Of a DNA stretch of 64,000 nt, positions 3,640 to 63,070 are shown one piece after another. The stretch is taken from contig JAGVZG010000004.1 of assembly GCA_018302765.1 (NCBI GenBank), positions 16,878 through 80,877 on the forward strand, read 5' to 3'. Origin of the DNA: Candidatus Woesearchaeota archaeon. GTDB lineage: Archaea; Nanobdellota; Nanobdellia; SCGC-AAA011-G17; GW2011-AR18. The translations under genes were made by a program, and so were the position numbers. Under the pieces are notes generated by a model, which searched no databases, had not been told where the DNA came from, and saw nothing but the letters and a program-made list of their open reading frames with translations. Position 1 is the first letter of the stretch. Every line of letters begins with the position of its first letter.

Positions 3640-4778
3640 AAATGGTGTTAAATATAACTTTTACAAAAATAGGAAAATTAAGGAAAGAAGTCTCCAAGTT
3701 AATAAGAATTAAATATTTTTTATCTTATTTAAAACTAAAAGATATTGAGCTATATCAACATAATGACTTACTTAATAACCAATTTTATTATTTAATTAAA
3801 ATTTTAAAAGAATTAGAGAATATAAACTGGAATTTATTCAGCAGAGATAATCTAATTAAATTGAAAAATGATATTGCATTTATAAATTTTGACGATTCTT
3901 TGAGATTGGAAGATTTATCTGAATTCTCGCAAAATATACTTGAACTAAAATTTTTACTTGAAGAAATCTATGAAGCAAGAAATAATTCAGATAGTATTAA
4001 AATAAATCAATTGATTAGACAAGGAGTCAATGTTAATTTTTTAAATTTGAAAATTATGAAAATTCTTCAAATTTTAAAATCTGCTTTTGGTGAAATAAGT
4101 CCAAGAAATCACTTACTTGGGGGGTTTTCTGGATATGCTTCTAAGAAATTATTTTTTGGAAAGAAATTTTTAGTTGGTACTGCTTTAGCTGGGTTTCTTA
4201 CAGGTACTCCAAATATCTTAGAAGCAAGTCAATTACCTGCTGCAGCAATGTCAACTAAATCTGGTTCTATACAAGGAAAATTTGAAAGAACTTATAGATG
4301 GAATAAACAAATATCTGCGGCTGAAGCTAGATACGGTATAGAAAGAGGCATACTTGCTGGTCTAATAATGAGAGAAAGTGAAGGCGATCCTTTAAAATTA
4401 AATTCAAGAGATGATGGAGGGGTTGGTCTAATGATGTTTCAACCTGGAACTGCAAGGACAATGGGTCTTAAAGTATACGGAAGTTCTAGAGCAACTGGAG
4501 TTGATAGAAATCATGGAAGAGAATTAAGATCTCTAGTAAACAAATATAAATTTAATCTCGGTACTTTAGCTAGACTTGATGAACGTTTTGACATTGTAAA
4601 GTGCATTGATGCTGGCGCTAGATATTTGAGAGTTTTGTATAACAAATATGGTTCTTGGGATACAGCTTTATCTGCTTATAATAGGGGAACTCCTGCTCGC
4701 TTTGCTAGATTTACTACTCATGTAAGGGCTGTAAGAAAATATCAAAATTATTATTTAAGAAATATTAGAAGATGGTAA
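3636..4778 (+). CDS. Soluble lytic transglycosylase (SLT) domain protein with N-terminal helical region
   Basis: C-terminal IMRESEG (catalytic Glu), GVGLMMFQPGTA, IDAGARYL, ALSAYNRG. Confidence 0.85.
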   Translation: MKMVLNITFTKIGKLRKEVSKLIRIKYFLSYLKLKDIELYQHNDLLNNQFYYLIKILKELENINWNLFSRDNLIKLKNDIAFINFDDSLRLEDLSEFSQNILELKFLLEEIYEARNNSDSIKINQLIRQGVNVNFLNLKIMKILQILKSAFGEISPRNHLLGGFSGYASKKLFFGKKFLVGTALAGFLTGTPNILEASQLPAAAMSTKSGSIQGKFERTYRWNKQISAAEARYGIERGILAGLIMRESEGDPLKLNSRDDGGVGLMMFQPGTARTMGLKVYGSSRATGVDRNHGRELRSLVNKYKFNLGTLARLDERFDIVKCIDAGARYLRVLYNKYGSWDTALSAYNRGTPARFARFTTHVRAVRKYQNYYLRNIRRW

Positions 4779-45761: not shown

Positions 45762-45866
45762 CGGGCCCGACGGGATTCGAACCCGCGGCCATCTGATTAA
45801 GAGTCAGATGCTTTCGGCAATTTTGAATTTTATTCTGAAATTACTACCAAGCTGAGCTACGGGCCC
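45762..45866 (-). tRNA. tRNA-Lys(CTT) with one D-arm intron at about 22/23 (45813-45843, 31 nt)
   Basis: Spliced 74 nt GGGCCCG TA GCTC AGCTTGGTA GAGC A TCTGA CTCTTAA TCAGA TGGCC GCGGG TTCGAAT CCCGT CGGGCCC G; helix TGGT/GCCG, inner stem AATTT/AAATT. Confidence 0.92.
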
Positions 45867-55961: not shown

Positions 55962-56198
55962 ATATTTCTATTTGTATATAATATAATATATATTTCATAA
56001 TTTGGGTGTGGACGACAAGACAATAAGCTTGCACATAAGACTATTAAAATAAATTGTCTTAATTATTTTATGGAAGAAAATATATATTTTTTGCAATTAC
56101 TAAAAAAGAAATTAGTGTTTAAGCTTGTTTTTGAAAAATCTCATTTTAGCTACAAGTTAAAATTTCTAATGAAAATATTTTAATATTTAAAAATTATA

Positions 56199-56435
56199 GA
56201 GGATAGCGGGGGCTTCCCGAAATGACATATTGTCAATTTTCTTTGGATTTGAACCAACGACCCATCCGTGCTAAAGCAATTCGGGTATCGCAAAGAGTGC
56301 GTACTCTTTATGAGCCTTCCGCAGTAAGACATTTGTCGTTACTTCGACGGACATTTAGGTTTTTTATAAAAAACTCCTAGCTGTCCTACCCGTATAGACT
56401 CAAGGTTCGCTATGGTATCAGCTTCCCCTATCCTC
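56199..56435 (-). repeat. Inverted repeat bracketing the tRNA-iMet precursor
   Basis: Leader GAGGATAG-GGG (56435-56425) is complementary to CCC-G-CTATCCTC (56210-56199). Confidence 0.8.
56204..56411 (-). tRNA. Initiator tRNA-Met(CAT) with six introns: 4/5 (56392-56407), 20a/21 (56354-56373), 29/30 (56317-56344), 37/38 (56287-56308), 44/45 (56263-56279), 64/65 (56213-56242)
   Basis: Seven exons (4, 18, 9, 8, 7, 20, 9 nt) give AGCGGGG TA GGAC AGCTAGGAGT GTCC G TCGGG CTCATAA CCCGA AGGTC GTTGG TTCAAAT CCAAC CCCCGCT A (75 nt): A1-U72 pair, G29G30G31/C39C40C41; each junction falls two nt into a BHB-type bulge. Confidence 0.92.
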
Positions 56436-56460
56436 TGCATCACAAAAGATAATAAAACTT

Positions 56461-56468
56461 CTTATAAA
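56461..56468 (-). promoter_or_regulatory. TATA box of tRNA-iMet, displaced upstream
   Basis: TTTATAAG at -57..-50 from mature +1; the -30..-23 window reads GATGCAGA. Confidence 0.6.
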
Positions 56469-56520
56469 GCTTTTGGAGAATAACCGTGAAATATTTAAGA
56501 ATTTCTGACATTGCAATATT

Positions 56521-57069: not shown

Positions 57070-57696
57070 ATGAAAAATGGTGCTGATTTTAAAGAGCTTA
57101 AAGAGGTAGAAAAGAACATCTTAAAAGGAATAAAACTTAATGATTGTTTTTCTAGTATAAAGACTGTTGCTGCCTTTGACATAGCTTACAAAGATAAAAC
57201 TTATTTTTGTGTTGGTGTTGTTATTGATATAGAAACTAAAGAAGAAGTTGAAAAAAAAGAGGTTAATGGAGAAGAAGTAATACCTTATTCACCCAGCCTT
57301 GCTGCTTTTAGAGAAGGGCCTGCAATAATTGACGCTTATAGGGCTTTAGAAAACAAACCTGATATCTTAATTGTCAAGGGTGAAGGGGCTGTAAAACTAA
57401 ACAGAGTGGGATTAGCCAGCTATGTTGGTGTAATTCTTAATAAACCCTGCATTGGTGTAGCAAAGGAATTAATGCATGGAAAACTTGAAGAAGATAAAAT
57501 TATTTTTGAAAATGAGTTAAAAGGCATTGCAATAAAAACAAAACAATTTGCAAATCCTGTTTATGTAACACCAGGACATAACGTAAGCTTGAAAACTTCT
57601 GTTGAAATTGTGAAAAAATTAAGCATTGATTCATACAAATTGCCTATTCCATTGCATTTAGCTCATAAATATGTGAACAAATTAAAGAAAAAATAG
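57070..57696 (+). CDS. nfi: Endonuclease V family protein
   Basis: AAFDIAY, PYSPSLAAFREGP, GLASYVGV, IGVAK, PVYVTPGH, KLPIPLHLAH; the second catalytic Asp position reads LIVKG. Confidence 0.85.
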   Translation: MKNGADFKELKEVEKNILKGIKLNDCFSSIKTVAAFDIAYKDKTYFCVGVVIDIETKEEVEKKEVNGEEVIPYSPSLAAFREGPAIIDAYRALENKPDILIVKGEGAVKLNRVGLASYVGVILNKPCIGVAKELMHGKLEEDKIIFENELKGIAIKTKQFANPVYVTPGHNVSLKTSVEIVKKLSIDSYKLPIPLHLAHKYVNKLKKK

Positions 57697-57701
57697 AAAA
57701 C

Positions 57702-58415
57702 TTAGTTAATTTTCAAGTAAGATTCCAGACCACAACTTCTTATGTATTCTTGTTCGCAGTTAAATTCCTGCGCAGCTATATCTCCTACAGCTACCAAACT
57801 ATTAAAATTTCTAATGTAAATATCAGAACCTAAACAAATAAATGTTTTTCTTACAGCTAAAACTGGAACTCGGCTTGAGCTATAAGCAGGATTTAATGGA
57901 TTTCCAATAATAAAAACTATATCTCCCAATGATAAATCTTTAACAATTTCATTAATGTGATTTGGGTTAGAATTAATTTCATTATAATTAACCCCTAAGT
58001 CTGAGAATATAAATGTGCCTCTTGGTCTTTTACCATCTTCCTCAGCTTCAGCTAATGATAATTTTAAGGCTGAAAATCTATCTTCATATTTTGTTAGTTC
58101 TTTTGTTTCTTTAAATCCGAATCCAGATACATTATAATTTGTTATAGATGCTGTATGTGCACTATATTGATTAAGTACGTCAATTAAACTTGGTTTTTCT
58201 TCGCCTTTTATTTTTCCGAAAATTTCATTGCAAAATGAGGATAAATTTTTATTATCCTGCCTTTCTAAAGCAAATGCTGTGATTATTTCAGCAGTTTGAT
58301 TAAGCCTAAAAAAAGCACATTTACCAACAGGAAGATCACTTACCTTTCCAATCAAACCTTCAATAACTGGAAATTCATAAAGCAGAAGCAAAAAAGTTGT
58401 GTGATTAGAAGCCAT
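57702..58415 (-). CDS. Hypothetical protein
   Basis: 237-aa ORF. Confidence 0.55.
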   Translation of the reverse strand: MASNHTTFLLLLYEFPVIEGLIGKVSDLPVGKCAFFRLNQTAEIITAFALERQDNKNLSSFCNEIFGKIKGEEKPSLIDVLNQYSAHTASITNYNVSGFGFKETKELTKYEDRFSALKLSLAEAEEDGKRPRGTFIFSDLGVNYNEINSNPNHINEIVKDLSLGDIVFIIGNPLNPAYSSSRVPVLAVRKTFICLGSDIYIRNFNSLVAVGDIAAQEFNCEQEYIRSCGLESYLKIN

Positions 58416-58527
58416 CTTTATAATTTTTTATTATGGTATAATCTTATTTTATTTAAATATTATTATAGTTGAAAATAAATAATAGAATTAATCATTCCTT
58501 GCATGCTTCACATTAACTCAATTTTTA

Positions 58528-58869
58528 TCAGGAGGAAACTGTAATTTGAATTTTATTTTTGTCAATTGGTTGTACTACTACCTCTTTTCCCTTCTTCAGT
58601 TTCATGAAATTAACAATTGCCCTAGAAAATCTTACGTCTAATGCAGTACCTGAAGTTCCTATTTTTGTTTTAGCAGCTAAGCCCCAAACACCTTGCTGTT
58701 TTGCCTTATTTTCTATTTTTAGAGATTCTTTGCCTTCAAAAATAGTTTCTCCGCAATTAGAGCAAACCCAAGCATAAAATTTTCCTAGATTTATGCCTAC
58801 TAAAATATAATCTATTTTCTTCTTAATAAATTTCCCTTTCCTGCATTCATCACAAACTTCGCCTTTCAT
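58528..58869 (-). CDS. YgiT/MqsA-type zinc finger fused to an AbrB-like domain (putative antitoxin)
   Basis: CDEC...CSNCGETIF; C-terminal TKIGTSGTALDVRF...LKKGKEVVV. Confidence 0.75.
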   Translation of the reverse strand: MKGEVCDECRKGKFIKKKIDYILVGINLGKFYAWVCSNCGETIFEGKESLKIENKAKQQGVWGLAAKTKIGTSGTALDVRFSRAIVNFMKLKKGKEVVVQPIDKNKIQITVSS

Positions 58870-58870
58870 T

Positions 58871-59083
58871 TTATTTATTTATAAAAACTGTTTTTATTTT
58901 ATAATTATCTCCTATTTTCTTATATGCTACTGAAAAGTAAGTGTAAACAGCTAAAAATCCATCTGTTTGTTTAAACACTGAGCCTCTTGTTATAGCTTCT
59001 GCAACTTGTTTTATTGACACTCCTTCTAAAATCATCTTATCTTGTGCATGCCTAGTTAATATTAAATCCTCCTCTTTTACCAT
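58871..59083 (-). CDS. DUF4258 family protein (putative RNase toxin)
   Basis: LTRHAQDKM..EGVS...V.EAI..G, C-terminal IKTVF; directly upstream of the Zn-finger gene. Confidence 0.75.
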   Translation of the reverse strand: MVKEEDLILTRHAQDKMILEGVSIKQVAEAITRGSVFKQTDGFLAVYTYFSVAYKKIGDNYKIKTVFINK

Positions 59084-59181
59084 ACATATTCGAATTTATA
59101 AGTATATACTTATATTTAAAGTTTTTTGAATTAGTCTTTTGCAATGCTTACATTTAATCTCTAATTCCATACATATATTAG

Positions 59182-59239
59182 GTACCTACTATTTATATAT
59201 CTTTCAGTACCTAATTAACTACTTTGTAGTTGGTACCTA
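59182..59239 (+). promoter_or_regulatory. Three GTACCTA repeats and an AACTAC-TTT-GTAGTT palindrome in a divergent promoter region
   Basis: Copies at 59182, 59207 and 59233; palindrome at 59217-59231. Confidence 0.45.
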
Positions 59240-59273
59240 AAAGTTTAAATATAAGTCCATTCTTCTTTAAATT

Positions 59274-59407
59274 ATGAAACTACAAAAACAACTTTCTAGA
59301 AAGGTTTGGTTATACCTCCAAATATGATAGAAGAATTAAAGTGGAGAGAAGGGCAAGAATTAGAAGCTGAAGTTAAGGAAAATAAACTGATAGTTAAAAA
59401 ACCTTAA
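59274..59407 (+). pseudogene. AbrB/MazE-like regulator remnant
   Basis: MKLQKQLSRKV, then after a frameshift VIPPNMIEELKWREGQELEAEVKENKLIVKKP*; the middle strand appears deleted. Confidence 0.65.
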
Positions 59408-59489
59408 ATTTTTTATTCAAAATTCCAGATGTTTACTTTACAGCTCATATTTTGGATAATTATTTAAACTTAATTTCTTTCAAAATCTT

Positions 59490-60170
59490 ATGAGATTTAA
59501 GATTAACACTGACAGTAATTATGTAAAATACAAAATCAATGGATTCTTATCTACATCAAACAGAGAAATAAAAGACATAAGCAAGGCTTGGTTTGCTATT
59601 TCATTGGCTTTTGGTATTGTTCTTGGTGGTCTAACTTTAAAATTCTTTACTGCTTTTATTATTTCAGCAATAGCTGTTGGCCTGGGATTTCTGCTTCATG
59701 AATTAAGCCATAAATTTTTTGCACAAAGGTATGGTTACAAAGCAGAATTTAGAAGCTTTGATGAAATGCTGTTTCTGGCTGTAATAATGAGTTTCTTTGG
59801 TTTTGTTATTGCTGCTCCTGGAGCTGTAATGATATTCAGCAATGTTCTTGACAAAAGAAAAAACGGAATAATTTCTGTTGCTGGACCTGCAATGAATATT
59901 ATTTTAGCTTTGATATTTCTACTGCTTGTGGTTTTTTTAACTGGAGGCTTTAACAGTACTATTAATTTATTAAATTCGTCAATACACAATCTTATAGAAT
60001 CATCTTTATTAAAAGCAATTTTAGCAATAGGATTTTTGGTTAACAGCTGGCTTGCTTTATTCAACATGATTCCATTATGGCTTTTTGATGGAGCTAAAGT
60101 ATTTAGATGGAATAAATTTGTATACTTTGCAGTTTTGATAGTTGCTATTGTTTTTGTATTTGGAATATAG
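59490..60170 (+). CDS. M50 family (site-2) membrane metalloprotease
   Basis: LHELSHK, ISVAGPAMN, FNMIPLWLFDG. Confidence 0.9.
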   Translation: MRFKINTDSNYVKYKINGFLSTSNREIKDISKAWFAISLAFGIVLGGLTLKFFTAFIISAIAVGLGFLLHELSHKFFAQRYGYKAEFRSFDEMLFLAVIMSFFGFVIAAPGAVMIFSNVLDKRKNGIISVAGPAMNIILALIFLLLVVFLTGGFNSTINLLNSSIHNLIESSLLKAILAIGFLVNSWLALFNMIPLWLFDGAKVFRWNKFVYFAVLIVAIVFVFGI

Positions 60171-60287
60171 AAAAATATTAAAGTATTTGTTAAAACTCAT
60201 GTTCATGAATAAAAATGGTTTTGATGAAAGAATTGTTTCATATGAATATATACATAATATAAATAATAAGTATATACATATCGAAAA

Positions 60288-60627
60288 ATGAATCATATTA
60301 ACTAAAAAGATATAATGGCTTTTAATTAAGAATTTGATGTAGGCAATCTACGTAATGAATCAAGTCTTGATTTTGCTTTAAGTTATGCTTATAGGACAGA
60401 GAACTGGACAAAGGCATTGGCATATTTAACTAGGGCAATATTAATTGATCATGTCTTTGAGGAAGGAAATAAAAGAACTGTAGCTTTATTAATAAAGAGC
60501 TATGCCGAATATGAAGACCGTAAAACATATAATGATAAAATAATAATACTAATTAAAGATGTAATTTTAAGAAAAAATTATAAGTATTAGGAAAATTGAG
60601 GAAATGATCAAAGATGCAATCAAATAA
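60288..60627 (+). pseudogene. Fic/Doc family toxin pseudogene
   Basis: DHVFEEGNKRT Fic-like motif; in-frame TAA at 60303 and 60327 plus a frameshift near 60580; the restored C-terminus overlaps the next gene. Confidence 0.75.
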
Positions 60628-60847
60628 ACTTATAAAAATAGCAAAAAAAGTAAAAATGAAAAACAAAGAACTATTTGATACTTTAATTGAATTTGAAAAA
60701 ACAAAAAAAATAAGGAACAAAACAAGATTAAATTTTACTATAGACAGAACCGTAGCATCTAAATTTAAAAAATTCTGCAGAGAAAAAGGTTATAATATGA
60801 GTGCAATAATAGAAAAAGCAATGAAAAAAGAAATGGGTGAAAAATAA
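60614..60847 (+). CDS. Small ribbon-helix-helix-like protein (putative antitoxin)
   Basis: RLNFTIDRTVASKFKKFCREKGYNMSAIIEKAM. Confidence 0.65.
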   Translation: MQSNKLIKIAKKVKMKNKELFDTLIEFEKTKKIRNKTRLNFTIDRTVASKFKKFCREKGYNMSAIIEKAMKKEMGEK

Positions 60848-60857
60848 GAGGTGTAAA

Positions 60858-61358
60858 ATGGTTGTAAATAAAGAACAAAGAATGGGTGTTTTTGTTGACG
60901 TGCAGAATATGTATTACAGCGCAAGGGCTTTGTATAATTCAAAAGTAAATTTTAAGGAAATTCTTAGAGAAGCTGTAAATGGAAGAAAATTAGTTAGAGC
61001 CATTGCGTATGGTGTAAGAGCTGGAGAAAAAGATGAGGAGAGTTTCTTTAAAGCTTTAGACGGCATAGGTTTTGAAGTTAAATTGAAAGATCTGCAGGTT
61101 TTTTATGGCGGAAATAAAAAGGCAGACTGGGATGTTGGCTTGGCCATAGACTCTATTGAATTAGCTCCTAAACTAGACGTTGTTGTTTTGGCTTCTGGTG
61201 ATGGAGATTATATTCCTTTGGTCGAACATTTGAAAAGGGCTTTAGGATGCAGAGTGGAAGTTTTGGCTTTTGGCAGAAGCTGCAGCGGAAAATTAAAAGA
61301 AGCTTGTGATGAATTTGTAGATATGGACAAGAGTAAGAAATTTGTCTTTACTAAATAA
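60858..61358 (+). CDS. NYN domain (LabA/DUF88) ribonuclease-like protein
   Basis: VFVDVQNMY, KKADWDVGLAID, LASGDGDYIPLV; GAGGTG ribosome-binding site. Confidence 0.92.
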   Translation: MVVNKEQRMGVFVDVQNMYYSARALYNSKVNFKEILREAVNGRKLVRAIAYGVRAGEKDEESFFKALDGIGFEVKLKDLQVFYGGNKKADWDVGLAIDSIELAPKLDVVVLASGDGDYIPLVEHLKRALGCRVEVLAFGRSCSGKLKEACDEFVDMDKSKKFVFTK

Positions 61359-61878
61359 TGTGAATAAAATTACTTTTTCAAGCGATAAAATAGGACCTAC
61401 TTATAAAGATTTTATAGAAACTGCTAAATTAGCAGAAAGTTATTTTAAAACTAAACAAAATAAAACTCAAATAGAAACTTCTAGAAAAAATAGTTTGTGG
61501 GCTTATAAAAAAATTCCAAACAGCTTAAATATAATAAGAAATGATAGAAAGATAATTGGTTTTGTATGGATTATTCCTTGTAGTAAAAGTTTAATGAATA
61601 AATTTTTAAGGAAAAAAATAAGTGAGGCAAAATTATTCAAAAAATTACAAGAACAAAAAATTGATGAGGATAATTTTGAGTCATTATATTTATGCTCTTC
61701 ATTTATTATTCCTGAATACAGACGAAAAGGTCTTGCTACTAAAGCTGCAATAAAAACTATTAGAAAACTAACACAGAAAAGAAAGATTAAACCAATATTA
61801 TTTTCTTGGCCTTATTCGAAAGAAGGGAAACTTACTATTTTAAAAGCTAAAAATACTATTAATATAAAGCTAAGATAA
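61342..61878 (+). CDS. GNAT-like fold protein
   Basis: IIGFVWII, FIIPEYRRKGLATK acetyl-CoA-binding-like motif; true start uncertain (GTG at 61360 possible). Confidence 0.55.
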   Translation: MSLLNNVNKITFSSDKIGPTYKDFIETAKLAESYFKTKQNKTQIETSRKNSLWAYKKIPNSLNIIRNDRKIIGFVWIIPCSKSLMNKFLRKKISEAKLFKKLQEQKIDEDNFESLYLCSSFIIPEYRRKGLATKAAIKTIRKLTQKRKIKPILFSWPYSKEGKLTILKAKNTINIKLR

Positions 61879-61934
61879 AATGCCAAAAGAAATTTCATAT
61901 GGTGCAGTAATATTTAGAAGAGAAGAAAAACATA
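61872..61934 (+). repeat. 63-bp perfect direct repeat, copy 1 (truncated duplicate of the Nudix gene 5' end)
   Basis: AAGATAAAATGCC...GAAAAACATA is identical to 62616-62678; it reads MPKEISYGAVIFRREEKHTK*. Confidence 0.95.
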
Positions 61935-61981
61935 CTAAATAGATATATTTATATACTTATTTTATATATATTTATATTAAT

Positions 61982-62266
61982 ATGGCATCAGAAACAATAC
62001 AAATAAACAAAGAAAAAGTAAAACATTCCCCTACGCTAAACACTGTCCTTATGGTAGAGGAAGTTTTGAAAAATGTCGGGGAGCTAATTACGGTTGCAGA
62101 ATTAAAAAGAAAACTTCCAAAAAAAGTAATGCACCAAACACTAATAGAAATTCTTGATTACTTGCAATTTAGTGGAAAAATAATAATTGGGACTAAAGGA
62201 ATTTTGTGGATATTTACAGAAAGAAAAGAATTAGAAGCAATGATTAATAGAGGAACAGAATTATGA
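61982..62266 (+). CDS. Winged-helix protein (putative antitoxin)
   Basis: HSPTLNTVLMVEE...LKRKLPKKVMHQTL..ILDYL..SGKI; stop overlaps the toxin ATG. Confidence 0.65.
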   Translation: MASETIQINKEKVKHSPTLNTVLMVEEVLKNVGELITVAELKRKLPKKVMHQTLIEILDYLQFSGKIIIGTKGILWIFTERKELEAMINRGTEL

Positions 62267-62622
62267 ACAAACCTGTAAGGGTGATAATCGTAGATGAAGC
62301 AGAAATAGAGTTCAAAAAACTGAATGAAATTGTTGGTCAACAAATTCGAGAAGGAAAAGATAACAGTGAGGAAATACAACTATTAAAATCTATAAAACAA
62401 AAAGTAGAATTTGTCAAAGCTAATCCTTTTTACGGAGATAATATAACTAAGAAATTAATACCAAATAAATACAATGTTCAAAATTTATGGAGAGTTGAAC
62501 TTACTCATTTTTGGAGGATGTTATACACAATAAAAGGAGACCAAATAGAAATAATTTGTTTTGTTCTTGATATAATTGATCATAATAAATATAATAAAGT
62601 ATTTGGATATAATAAAAGATAA
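62263..62622 (+). CDS. RelE/ParE-like toxin
   Basis: NLWRVELTHFWRMLYTI...VLDIIDHNKYNKVFGY. Confidence 0.65.
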   Translation: MNKPVRVIIVDEAEIEFKKLNEIVGQQIREGKDNSEEIQLLKSIKQKVEFVKANPFYGDNITKKLIPNKYNVQNLWRVELTHFWRMLYTIKGDQIEIICFVLDIIDHNKYNKVFGYNKR

Positions 62623-62678
62623 AATGCCAAAAGAAATTTCATATGGTGCAGTAATATTTAGAAGAGAAGAAAAACATA
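62616..62678 (+). repeat. 63-bp perfect direct repeat, copy 2 (start of the intact Nudix gene)
   Basis: Identical to 61872-61934. Confidence 0.95.
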
Positions 62679-63070
62679 TTTTGTATTTACTTCTTTACAG
62701 AAAAGCGCATGAACATTACAAAGAGATGTGGGATTTTCCAAGGGGCTTGATTGAAAAGGGAGAAACTCCTGAAGAAGACATTGTAAGGGAAGTTAAAGAA
62801 GAAACAGGAATTGAAAATATAAAATTCATTAAGGGGCTTAAAGAAACTGTAAAATGGTTTTACAAAAAAGAAGGCCAAACAGTGTTCAAAGAAGCAACTT
62901 ATTATCTAGCCGAAACAAATACTAAAGAAATTAAATTAAGTTTTGAGCATGATGATTTTAAATGGTGCAGCTATGAAGAAGCTCTTAAATTAATAAAATT
63001 CAGCAATACAAAAAGTGTTTTAAAAAAAGCCAATGAATTCATGACTGGTGGATTAAATAGGTTTGTTTAG
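62624..63070 (+). CDS. NUDIX hydrolase (Ap4A hydrolase-like)
   Basis: SYGAVIFR, WDFPRGLIEKGETPEEDIVREVKEETG Nudix box, LSFEHDDFKW. Confidence 0.9.
   Translation: MPKEISYGAVIFRREEKHILYLLLYRKAHEHYKEMWDFPRGLIEKGETPEEDIVREVKEETGIENIKFIKGLKETVKWFYKKEGQTVFKEATYYLAETNTKEIKLSFEHDDFKWCSYEEALKLIKFSNTKSVLKKANEFMTGGLNRFV

Follow-up and report, generated by a model that had tools for sequence, protein, structure and literature searches.

A Woesearchaeota initiator tRNA-Met gene with six BHB introns, a conserved leader and a modelled preference in the order of splicing

We found that an initiator tRNA-Met(CAU) gene of a Candidatus Woesearchaeota archaeon is interrupted by six BHB introns, which is twice the published record of three. 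It lies on the minus strand of the window, the whole stretch of 64,000 nucleotides of DNA that was analysed. The maximum number of introns per tRNA gene is stated as three, as in reviews and the tRNAscan-SE 2.0 paper (PMC4033280, PMC8450103, PMC6379350, PMC4090602), and no report of a tRNA gene with more than three introns was found in the literature searched. The explanation that we prefer, and hold to be rather probable, is that the gene encodes a functional initiator tRNA-Met, that its introns would be removed in a preferred (not necessary) order, and that the 5' leader would be obligatory for splicing at 4/5. From the DNA sequence, we infer that the gene is transcribed and spliced, and in what order. 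The idea of an order is not new, and ordered splicing of multi-intron tRNAs is already known. For example, tRNAscan-SE iterates since one intron sometimes must be removed before the next BHB forms (PMC8450103), and RT-PCR in Cyanidioschyzon merolae showed ordered processing with 37/38 last (PMC3728597).

The window has a G+C content of about 29%, the best named relatives of the neighbouring endonuclease V gene are found in Woesearchaeota/Nanoarchaeia, and the homologous tRNA loci belong to MAGs named Candidatus Woesearchaeota. Several relatives keep the same gene order around the tRNA: endonuclease V, M50 peptidase, NYN-domain protein and NUDIX (57070-63070).

Gene structure and the mature tRNA

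The gene extends from A1 at 56411 to A73 at 56204, and introns at 4/5, 20a/21, 29/30, 37/38, 44/45 and 64/65 divide it into seven exons of 4, 18, 9, 8, 7, 20 and 9 nt (5' to 3'), all read from the minus strand. Exon 1 (AGCG, tRNA positions 1-4, 56408-56411) was assigned by spliced alignment and by ARAGORN on the spliced product. It is followed by exon 2 (GGGTAGGACAGCTAGGAG, positions 5-20a, 56374-56391), exon 3 (TGTCCGTCG, positions 21-29, 56345-56353), which is wholly covered by BHB parts, exon 4 (GGCTCATA, positions 30-37, 56309-56316), which bears the anticodon CAT, exon 5 (ACCCGAA, positions 38-44, 56280-56286), exon 6 (GGTCGTTGGTTCAAATCCAA, positions 45-64, 56243-56262) and exon 7 (CCCCCGCTA, positions 65-73, 56204-56212); the CCA end is not encoded. 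Splice sites were set by exon continuity and by intron-free relatives. When joined, the seven exons give a 75-nt RNA that ARAGORN recognised as tRNA-Met(CAT) with a perfect cloverleaf, and tRNA-Met(CAT) was likewise called on the spliced products of 12 homologues. The unspliced DNA of the gene gave no match with ARAGORN or Rfam. The spliced sequence, AGCGGGG...GGGCUCAUAACCC...CCCCGCUA, carries the CAU anticodon, an A1:U72 pair and the pairs G29-31:C39-41, and we take A1:U72 together with these three G:C pairs to mark an archaeal initiator tRNA-Met. The exon order is colinear on one strand, and the gene is neither a permuted nor a split tRNA gene. A first-pass annotation of this DNA had already read six BHB introns in tRNA-iMet, which we confirm; the range it gave, 56213-56407, runs from the last base of intron 6 to the first base of intron 1 and leaves out exon 1 (56411-56408) and the last exon (56212-56204).

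The six BHB motifs and their conservation

All motifs were read in the canonical BHB register, which has no free parameter: helix H pairs exon bases N-5..N-2 with intron bases L-5..L-2, and cleavage falls after the second nucleotide of each 3-nt bulge, as in the ARMAN-2 EndA-RNA structure (PMC12397907). Introns 1 to 3 on the minus strand form strict hBHBh' motifs. In intron 1 (4/5, 16 nt, 56392-56407), helix H is ATAG/CTAT (4/4 paired, 56413-56410 with 56397-56394), the inner helix has 2 bp, and the outer helix of 4 bp joins leader TACC (56417-56414) to G6-A9 (56390-56387); the final intron base, which lies in the bulge, varies between C, T and A among homologues. Intron 2 (20a/21 in the D-loop, 20 nt, 56354-56373) has helix H TAGG/CCTA (4/4), an outer helix of 2 bp and an inner helix of 5 bp, and this inner helix is maintained despite wholly different sequences in L120, L246 and L252. 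Intron 3 (29/30, 28 nt, 56317-56344) pairs C24-T27 (56350-56347) with GCGG (56322-56319) in a helix H that is 4/4 here and in eight of eight multi-intron homologues, with outer and inner helices of 2 and 5 bp; its BHB was recovered unaided by RNAalifold, with compensatory change in 9 of 13 pairs.

Introns 4 to 6, on the same strand, have relaxed motifs. The weakest is the non-canonical BHB of intron 4 at the canonical position 37/38 (22 nt, 56287-56308), where helix H CTCA/TGCG is 3/4 paired with an invariant T33xC mismatch and the outer helix has 2 bp. In the canonical register its inner helix has 2 bp; the hairpin naturally forms 1 nt out of this register, and in the minimum-energy fold of every homologue the 5' splice site lies within a helix. 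The 3' end of this intron, TTTGCGAT (56287-56294), is nevertheless invariant in all eight multi-intron homologues, despite the C opposite T33. Intron 5 (44/45, 17 nt, 56263-56279) lacks an outer helix and pairs C39-G42 (56285-56282) with CGGA (56268-56265), 3/4 with a C39xA mismatch and C40-G42 paired, and its inner helix of 3 bp shows compensatory changes. For the 44/45 region, whose lengths are too unequal, RNAalifold found no structure in a MAFFT alignment, and covariation was read from splice-site-anchored counts. For 44/45, an outer helix might come from pairing of GCGAT, in the 3' end of intron 4, with GTCGT, the first bases of exon 6; both of these sides are invariant. Intron 6 (64/65, 30 nt, 56213-56242) has no outer helix in cis and pairs A59-C62 (56248-56245) with GGGA (56218-56215), 3/4 with an A59xA mismatch and T60-C62 paired. 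The T60.G pair of the window is T60-A in homologues, the inner helix of 4 bp carries compensatory changes, and folding the precursor without constraints gives a minimum-energy structure that contains the 64/65 BHB. The exon bases that the first-pass annotation had assigned to 4/5 (G6-A9), 29/30 (C24-T27), 44/45 (C39-G42) and 64/65 (A59-C62) are all correct, the last two with the one mismatch each described above.

A chance origin of the six BHBs is excluded. When introns were shuffled at fixed register, per-intron P values were 0.001-0.02, with a product of about 8e-14, and the whole precursor folds more stably than shuffles (z = -4.7). EndA of broad specificity is known to cleave relaxed BHB motifs (PMC6379350), and since the motifs at 37/38, 44/45 and 64/65 are relaxed (helix H 3/4, two without an outer helix), an endonuclease of broad specificity would be needed here. 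Kaneta et al. linked an alpha4 EndA with an L3 loop in DPANN to more tRNA disruption; they surveyed a Woesearchaeota genome and noted incomplete tRNA sets, which imply that disrupted genes went undetected (PMC5829648). EndA, RtcB and RNase P proteins were not found by a Pfam scan of the 28 window ORFs, and the introns and leader, read for box C/D guide motifs, hold no conserved one, only a CUGA that is a chance match.

ARAGORN found no tRNA in the window, which contains at least two. The second hidden one is a tRNA-Lys(CUU) on the minus strand (45762-45866), with a 31-nt BHB intron (45843-45813) at 22/23 in the D-arm and helix H TGGT/GCCG (4/4). It was missed by ARAGORN, Rfam matches its 3' part only, and a TATA box about 24 nt before G1 suggests a leaderless transcript. 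Its intron ends in GCCGAA|A (45813-45819), similar to intron 3 (GCGGAA|G, 56317-56323) and intron 6 (GGGAAG|C, 56213-56219) of the initiator gene. The likeness of these 3' ends hints at a preference of the endonuclease or at a common origin through transposition of introns, a process that has been proposed for Thermoproteales.

Homologues were collected from contigs encoding endonuclease V homologues and from one exon-pattern genome scan, and at least seven distinct multi-intron homologues with four to six introns were found besides the window. The genome scan, with a 15-nt exon pattern, returned mostly bacterial chance matches; those useful among the matches listed were L030, L039, L058, L063 and L120, and L032 is a repeat of the L003 contig. 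In a metagenome scan, the exon-6 pattern equalled the T-arm of bacterial tRNA-fMet, and among the matches listed only the partial L137 belongs to the tRNA-iMet family. The same six introns occur in the window, L002 and L120, and L247 also has six, with its D-loop intron at 15/16 in place of 20a/21. L246 and L253 have five introns, without 44/45; L252 has five, without 64/65; and L250 has four, without the D-loop intron and 64/65. The more distant L063 and L030 have four introns each, partly at other sites, L039 and L003 have one each (in the syntenic L003 at 37/38), and the non-syntenic L058 has none. Single introns are precisely present or absent among homologues. L255, an independent assembly, is identical to the window. 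Counting the window, the mature sequence is identical in seven of eight multi-intron genes and near-identical in the remaining one, with introns 24-96% similar. Two tRNA-iMet genes were seen in one MAG, GCA_964373095.1: L120, with six introns on a non-syntenic contig, and L252, with five in an RNase HII-EndoV context. They are either paralogues or the product of a mixed bin.

Particularly informative is L250, in which the D-stem pair G11:C24 has become A11:T24 and the partner in intron 3 has changed from GCGG to GCGA. By this triple change, position 24 keeps one conserved partner in the mature tRNA and another in the precursor, and the covariation is direct comparative support for mutually exclusive pairings at this position.

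Promoter, leader and trailer

A candidate archaeal promoter, read from the sequence of the minus strand at 56462-56474, consists of a BRE-like AAAAGC and a TATA box, TTTATAA (56468-56462). The TATA box lies 24 nt upstream of the leader start, and the position of the putative transcription start follows from this spacing. A AAAGCTTTATAA box is likewise found upstream in L002, L246, L247, L250, L252, L255 and the single-intron L003, and the box of L253 reads AAAGGTTTATAA. The 5' leader on the minus strand (27 nt, GCAGAGGAUAGGGGAAGCUGAUACCAU, 56412-56438) is conserved in eight multi-intron homologues and has two pairing parts. Bases 56417-56412 give the 4/5 BHB its outer helix and half of its helix H, and bases 56436-56425 form a duplex with the trailer and the 3' acceptor strand. 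In this duplex the 3' trailer arm UCCUCU (56198-56203, minus strand) pairs with leader 56436-56431, and leader AG-GGG (56429-56425) pairs with the 3' acceptor strand as a stand-in for the 5' acceptor strand. Its folding energy is -20.6 to -24.7 kcal/mol across the multi-intron homologues, with compensatory changes (GGAU/AUCC, GAAG/CUUC, GGAA/UUCC); its only interruption is a 1-nt bulge at G70, and in RNAfold the pairing persists after all six splices.

There is essentially no leader in the one-intron L003 and the intronless L058, and none in the four-intron L063. The TATA box stands only about 24-27 nt before position 1 in L003, L063, L058 and the window's tRNA-Lys, which suggests leaderless transcripts for these genes. 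Randau et al. reportedly described leaderless tRNAs in Nanoarchaeum equitans in 2008, and the genes of the relatives and the window's tRNA-Lys resemble these in the TATA spacing. In contrast to the split tRNAs of N. equitans (PMC4090602), the six-intron gene is colinear and has a 27-nt leader.

Three other roles for the leader region were considered and ruled out. A leader-trailer BHB, with a circular intermediate or a permuted gene, does not fit a duplex without 3-nt bulges; a seventh intron in the leader (AG|...|CG) would need a helix H that, on reading the sequence, is unpaired; and for an endonuclease cut at -1/+1 there is no fitting motif before or after 4/5 splicing. As described in PMC4090602 (citing Chan et al. 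2011), the permuted tRNA-Met of Thermofilum pendens is likewise an initiator with endonuclease-dependent maturation and leader-trailer pairing; it differs in exon order, which is normal here, and in that our duplex has no 3-nt bulges.

A further reading, which we regard as doubtful, is that the conserved leader acts as a built-in folding device. As long as the 4/5 BHB locks up the true 5' strand, leader AG-GGG would keep hold of the 3' acceptor strand and the trailer, and maturation would be a programmed refolding cascade from a leader-held precursor through six splices to leader release. The leader may in that case also supply the missing outer helix of 64/65 in trans. Other tRNAs of the lineage look leaderless and RNase P may be absent, so that the folding device, if real, would imply a novel route of 5'-leader removal. 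As a separate observation, the tRNA-iMet gene of L039 (Woesearchaeota MAG CAYIXG010000007.1, minus strand near 4400), with one intron at 7/8, has a short leader in which an exact second copy of the 5' acceptor strand, AGCGGGG, lies where transcription probably starts; this copy parallels the stand-in strand of the window's leader.

Coexistence of the motifs and order of splicing

If the core of a BHB is taken to comprise helix H, the two bulges and two pairs of the inner helix, no nucleotide belongs to more than one of the six cores, and one nested structure accommodates them all. This structure has an energy of -53.0 kcal/mol against -79.3 kcal/mol for the unconstrained optimum; in it, BHB parts occupy 40 of the 75 exon bases, and none of the four cloverleaf stems stays intact. 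Because the BHB helices draw on nucleotides of all four stems, the precursor cannot form the BHB folds and the cloverleaf together, as the first-pass annotation had said and as the covariation in L250 proves for position 24. Clashes occur only between the 2-bp outer helices of neighbours, in three pairs: 20a/21 with 29/30 (at G22 and T23), 29/30 with 37/38 (G30-C32) and 37/38 with 44/45 (C39 and C40). They arise because exons 3, 4 and 5 have only 9, 8 and 7 nt, and the 7 nt of exon 5 are the fewest that geometry permits between two neighbouring cores (one bulge, four helix H and two bulge nucleotides). The first-pass claim that 37/38 and 44/45 compete for the same bases stands for the outer helix of 37/38, G30-G31:C39-C40, which shares C39 and C40 with helix H of 44/45, and falls for the cores, which share none. 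Coexistence of all six BHBs in folding, which the first-pass annotation had named as evidence against an ordered pathway, is half borne out, with the cores coexisting and three pairs of outer helices clashing.

No BHB draws on the nucleotides of another intron, none is nested, and the unspliced precursor allows all six cores to form. An obligate order of the nested kind, in which a BHB can form only once another intron is gone, was not found among the six. Removal of an intron never destroys the motif of another, and the sole effect on a neighbour's pairing is that, while intron 29/30 is present, the outer helix of 37/38 in the anticodon stem has 2 bp instead of 5. The energetic side was modelled by constrained partition-function folding of four six-intron homologues, with nearest-neighbour energies at 37 C and with the enzyme, co-transcriptional folding and growth temperature outside the model. 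In all cases the 37/38 BHB was the costliest, at 8.8-10.2 kcal/mol in the full precursor and 11.0-13.5 kcal/mol with its outer helix. Its cost fell to 6.3-6.7 kcal/mol after removal of 29/30, and was little changed by removal of 44/45 alone; without 29/30 it was 2-7 kcal/mol cheaper in all four homologues modelled. The strongest modelled dependency of 37/38 is on 29/30, not on 44/45. Formation of 44/45 cost least in the full precursor (2.9-3.9 kcal/mol) and most as the last intron (5.2-7.6 kcal/mol); 64/65 was cheap at all stages (0.8-6.4 kcal/mol), and 4/5 became cheaper late. For most introns the cost differences were only 1-3 kcal/mol and their sign varied among homologues.

These models favour early removal of 44/45 and 64/65 and removal of 29/30 before 37/38, as a preference: an obligatory order is not logically implied, and mutually exclusive alternative folds by themselves impose none. 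The one hard order predicted from the sequence is that 4/5 must be spliced before the 5' leader is removed, because leader bases -6 to -1 are building blocks of the 4/5 BHB. Under the preferred explanation, the 3' part of each intron would pair with four exon bases two bases upstream of its 5' splice site, and these pairings, together with the leader-trailer/acceptor duplex, would turn the precursor into a row of local hairpins with broken cloverleaf stems. In six rounds, the archaeal splicing endonuclease would then cleave within the 3-nt bulges and RtcB would ligate the exons, as expected from the known pathway. As neighbouring introns compete for their 2-bp outer helices, the endonuclease would have to take them one by one: 44/45 and 64/65 would form most readily in the full precursor, 37/38 would come late since removal of 29/30 restores the anticodon stem that it needs, and 4/5 would be spliced while the leader is still attached.

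Other explanations were weighed against the same evidence. That the gene is a decayed or non-functional relic, with insertions posing as introns, is scarcely credible; it would agree with the failure of standard tRNA finders, but the exons are identical in seven divergent homologues while the introns diverge, compensatory changes preserve the BHB helices, the promoter is conserved, and the splice register is exact in all six introns. A strictly ordered, obligatory cascade, serving as a regulatory gate on initiator tRNA supply, could be argued from the mutually exclusive outer helices of neighbouring BHBs, from the consistent saving for 37/38 after removal of 29/30, and from the nested introns with obligate order that exist in Thermoproteales (PMC8450103, PMC3728597). 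Here, however, the cores are compatible and none is nested, and in close relatives any one of 44/45, 64/65 and the D-loop intron may be missing with the others unaltered. The introns are moreover dispensable, because the syntenic L003 has one and the non-syntenic L058 none, and the locus bears no sign of regulation, all of which makes such a gate very improbable. Two first-pass claims find no support: that some introns must be removed in sequence, and that six splicing rounds could gate translation initiation.

Unordered splicing, in which the precursor breathes, the endonuclease captures any BHB that has formed and only the leader dependence of 4/5 is real, is the opposite case, and we consider it unlikely while giving it some weight. 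It agrees with cores that share no nucleotides, with BHBs that use no bases of other introns, with modelled cost differences that are mostly small and inconsistent between homologues, and with the evolutionarily independent presence and absence of introns. It is harder to reconcile with the large and consistent effect of 29/30 on 37/38 in the model, with a 37/38 motif that is the poorest in every homologue, and with the removal of 37/38 last in the sole organism with a measured order (PMC3728597).

Compared with known systems, the gene combines familiar and different features. In the multi-intron tRNAs of Thermoproteales (Pyrobaculum and Thermofilum; Sugahara 2007/2008, reviewed in PMC4033280 and PMC8450103), BHB folds likewise disrupt the cloverleaf, and some introns lie near enough to each other for it to matter which is removed first. 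However, there are at most three introns there against six here (PMC4033280, PMC8450103, PMC6379350), the host is a hyperthermophilic crenarchaeon there and a low-GC DPANN archaeon here, and our gene has no nested intron and has a conserved leader that forms part of its first BHB. The nuclear tRNAs of C. merolae are like ours in having independent, non-nested BHB introns, up to three there, and the order follows BHB stability with 37/38 last (PMC3728597), which matches the preference modelled here; the difference is that C. merolae is a eukaryote whose order was measured, whereas ours is only modelled.

In conclusion, initiator tRNA genes that hold four to six introns, and whose exons can be as short as 4 and 7 nt, show how far BHB splicing can go, and hidden multi-intron tRNAs of this kind would explain why DPANN tRNA sets look incomplete in standard finders. 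Since close relatives differ by single introns, they provide built-in controls for the question of ordered splicing, and this tRNA-iMet family can serve as a natural system for asking whether multi-intron splicing is ordered.
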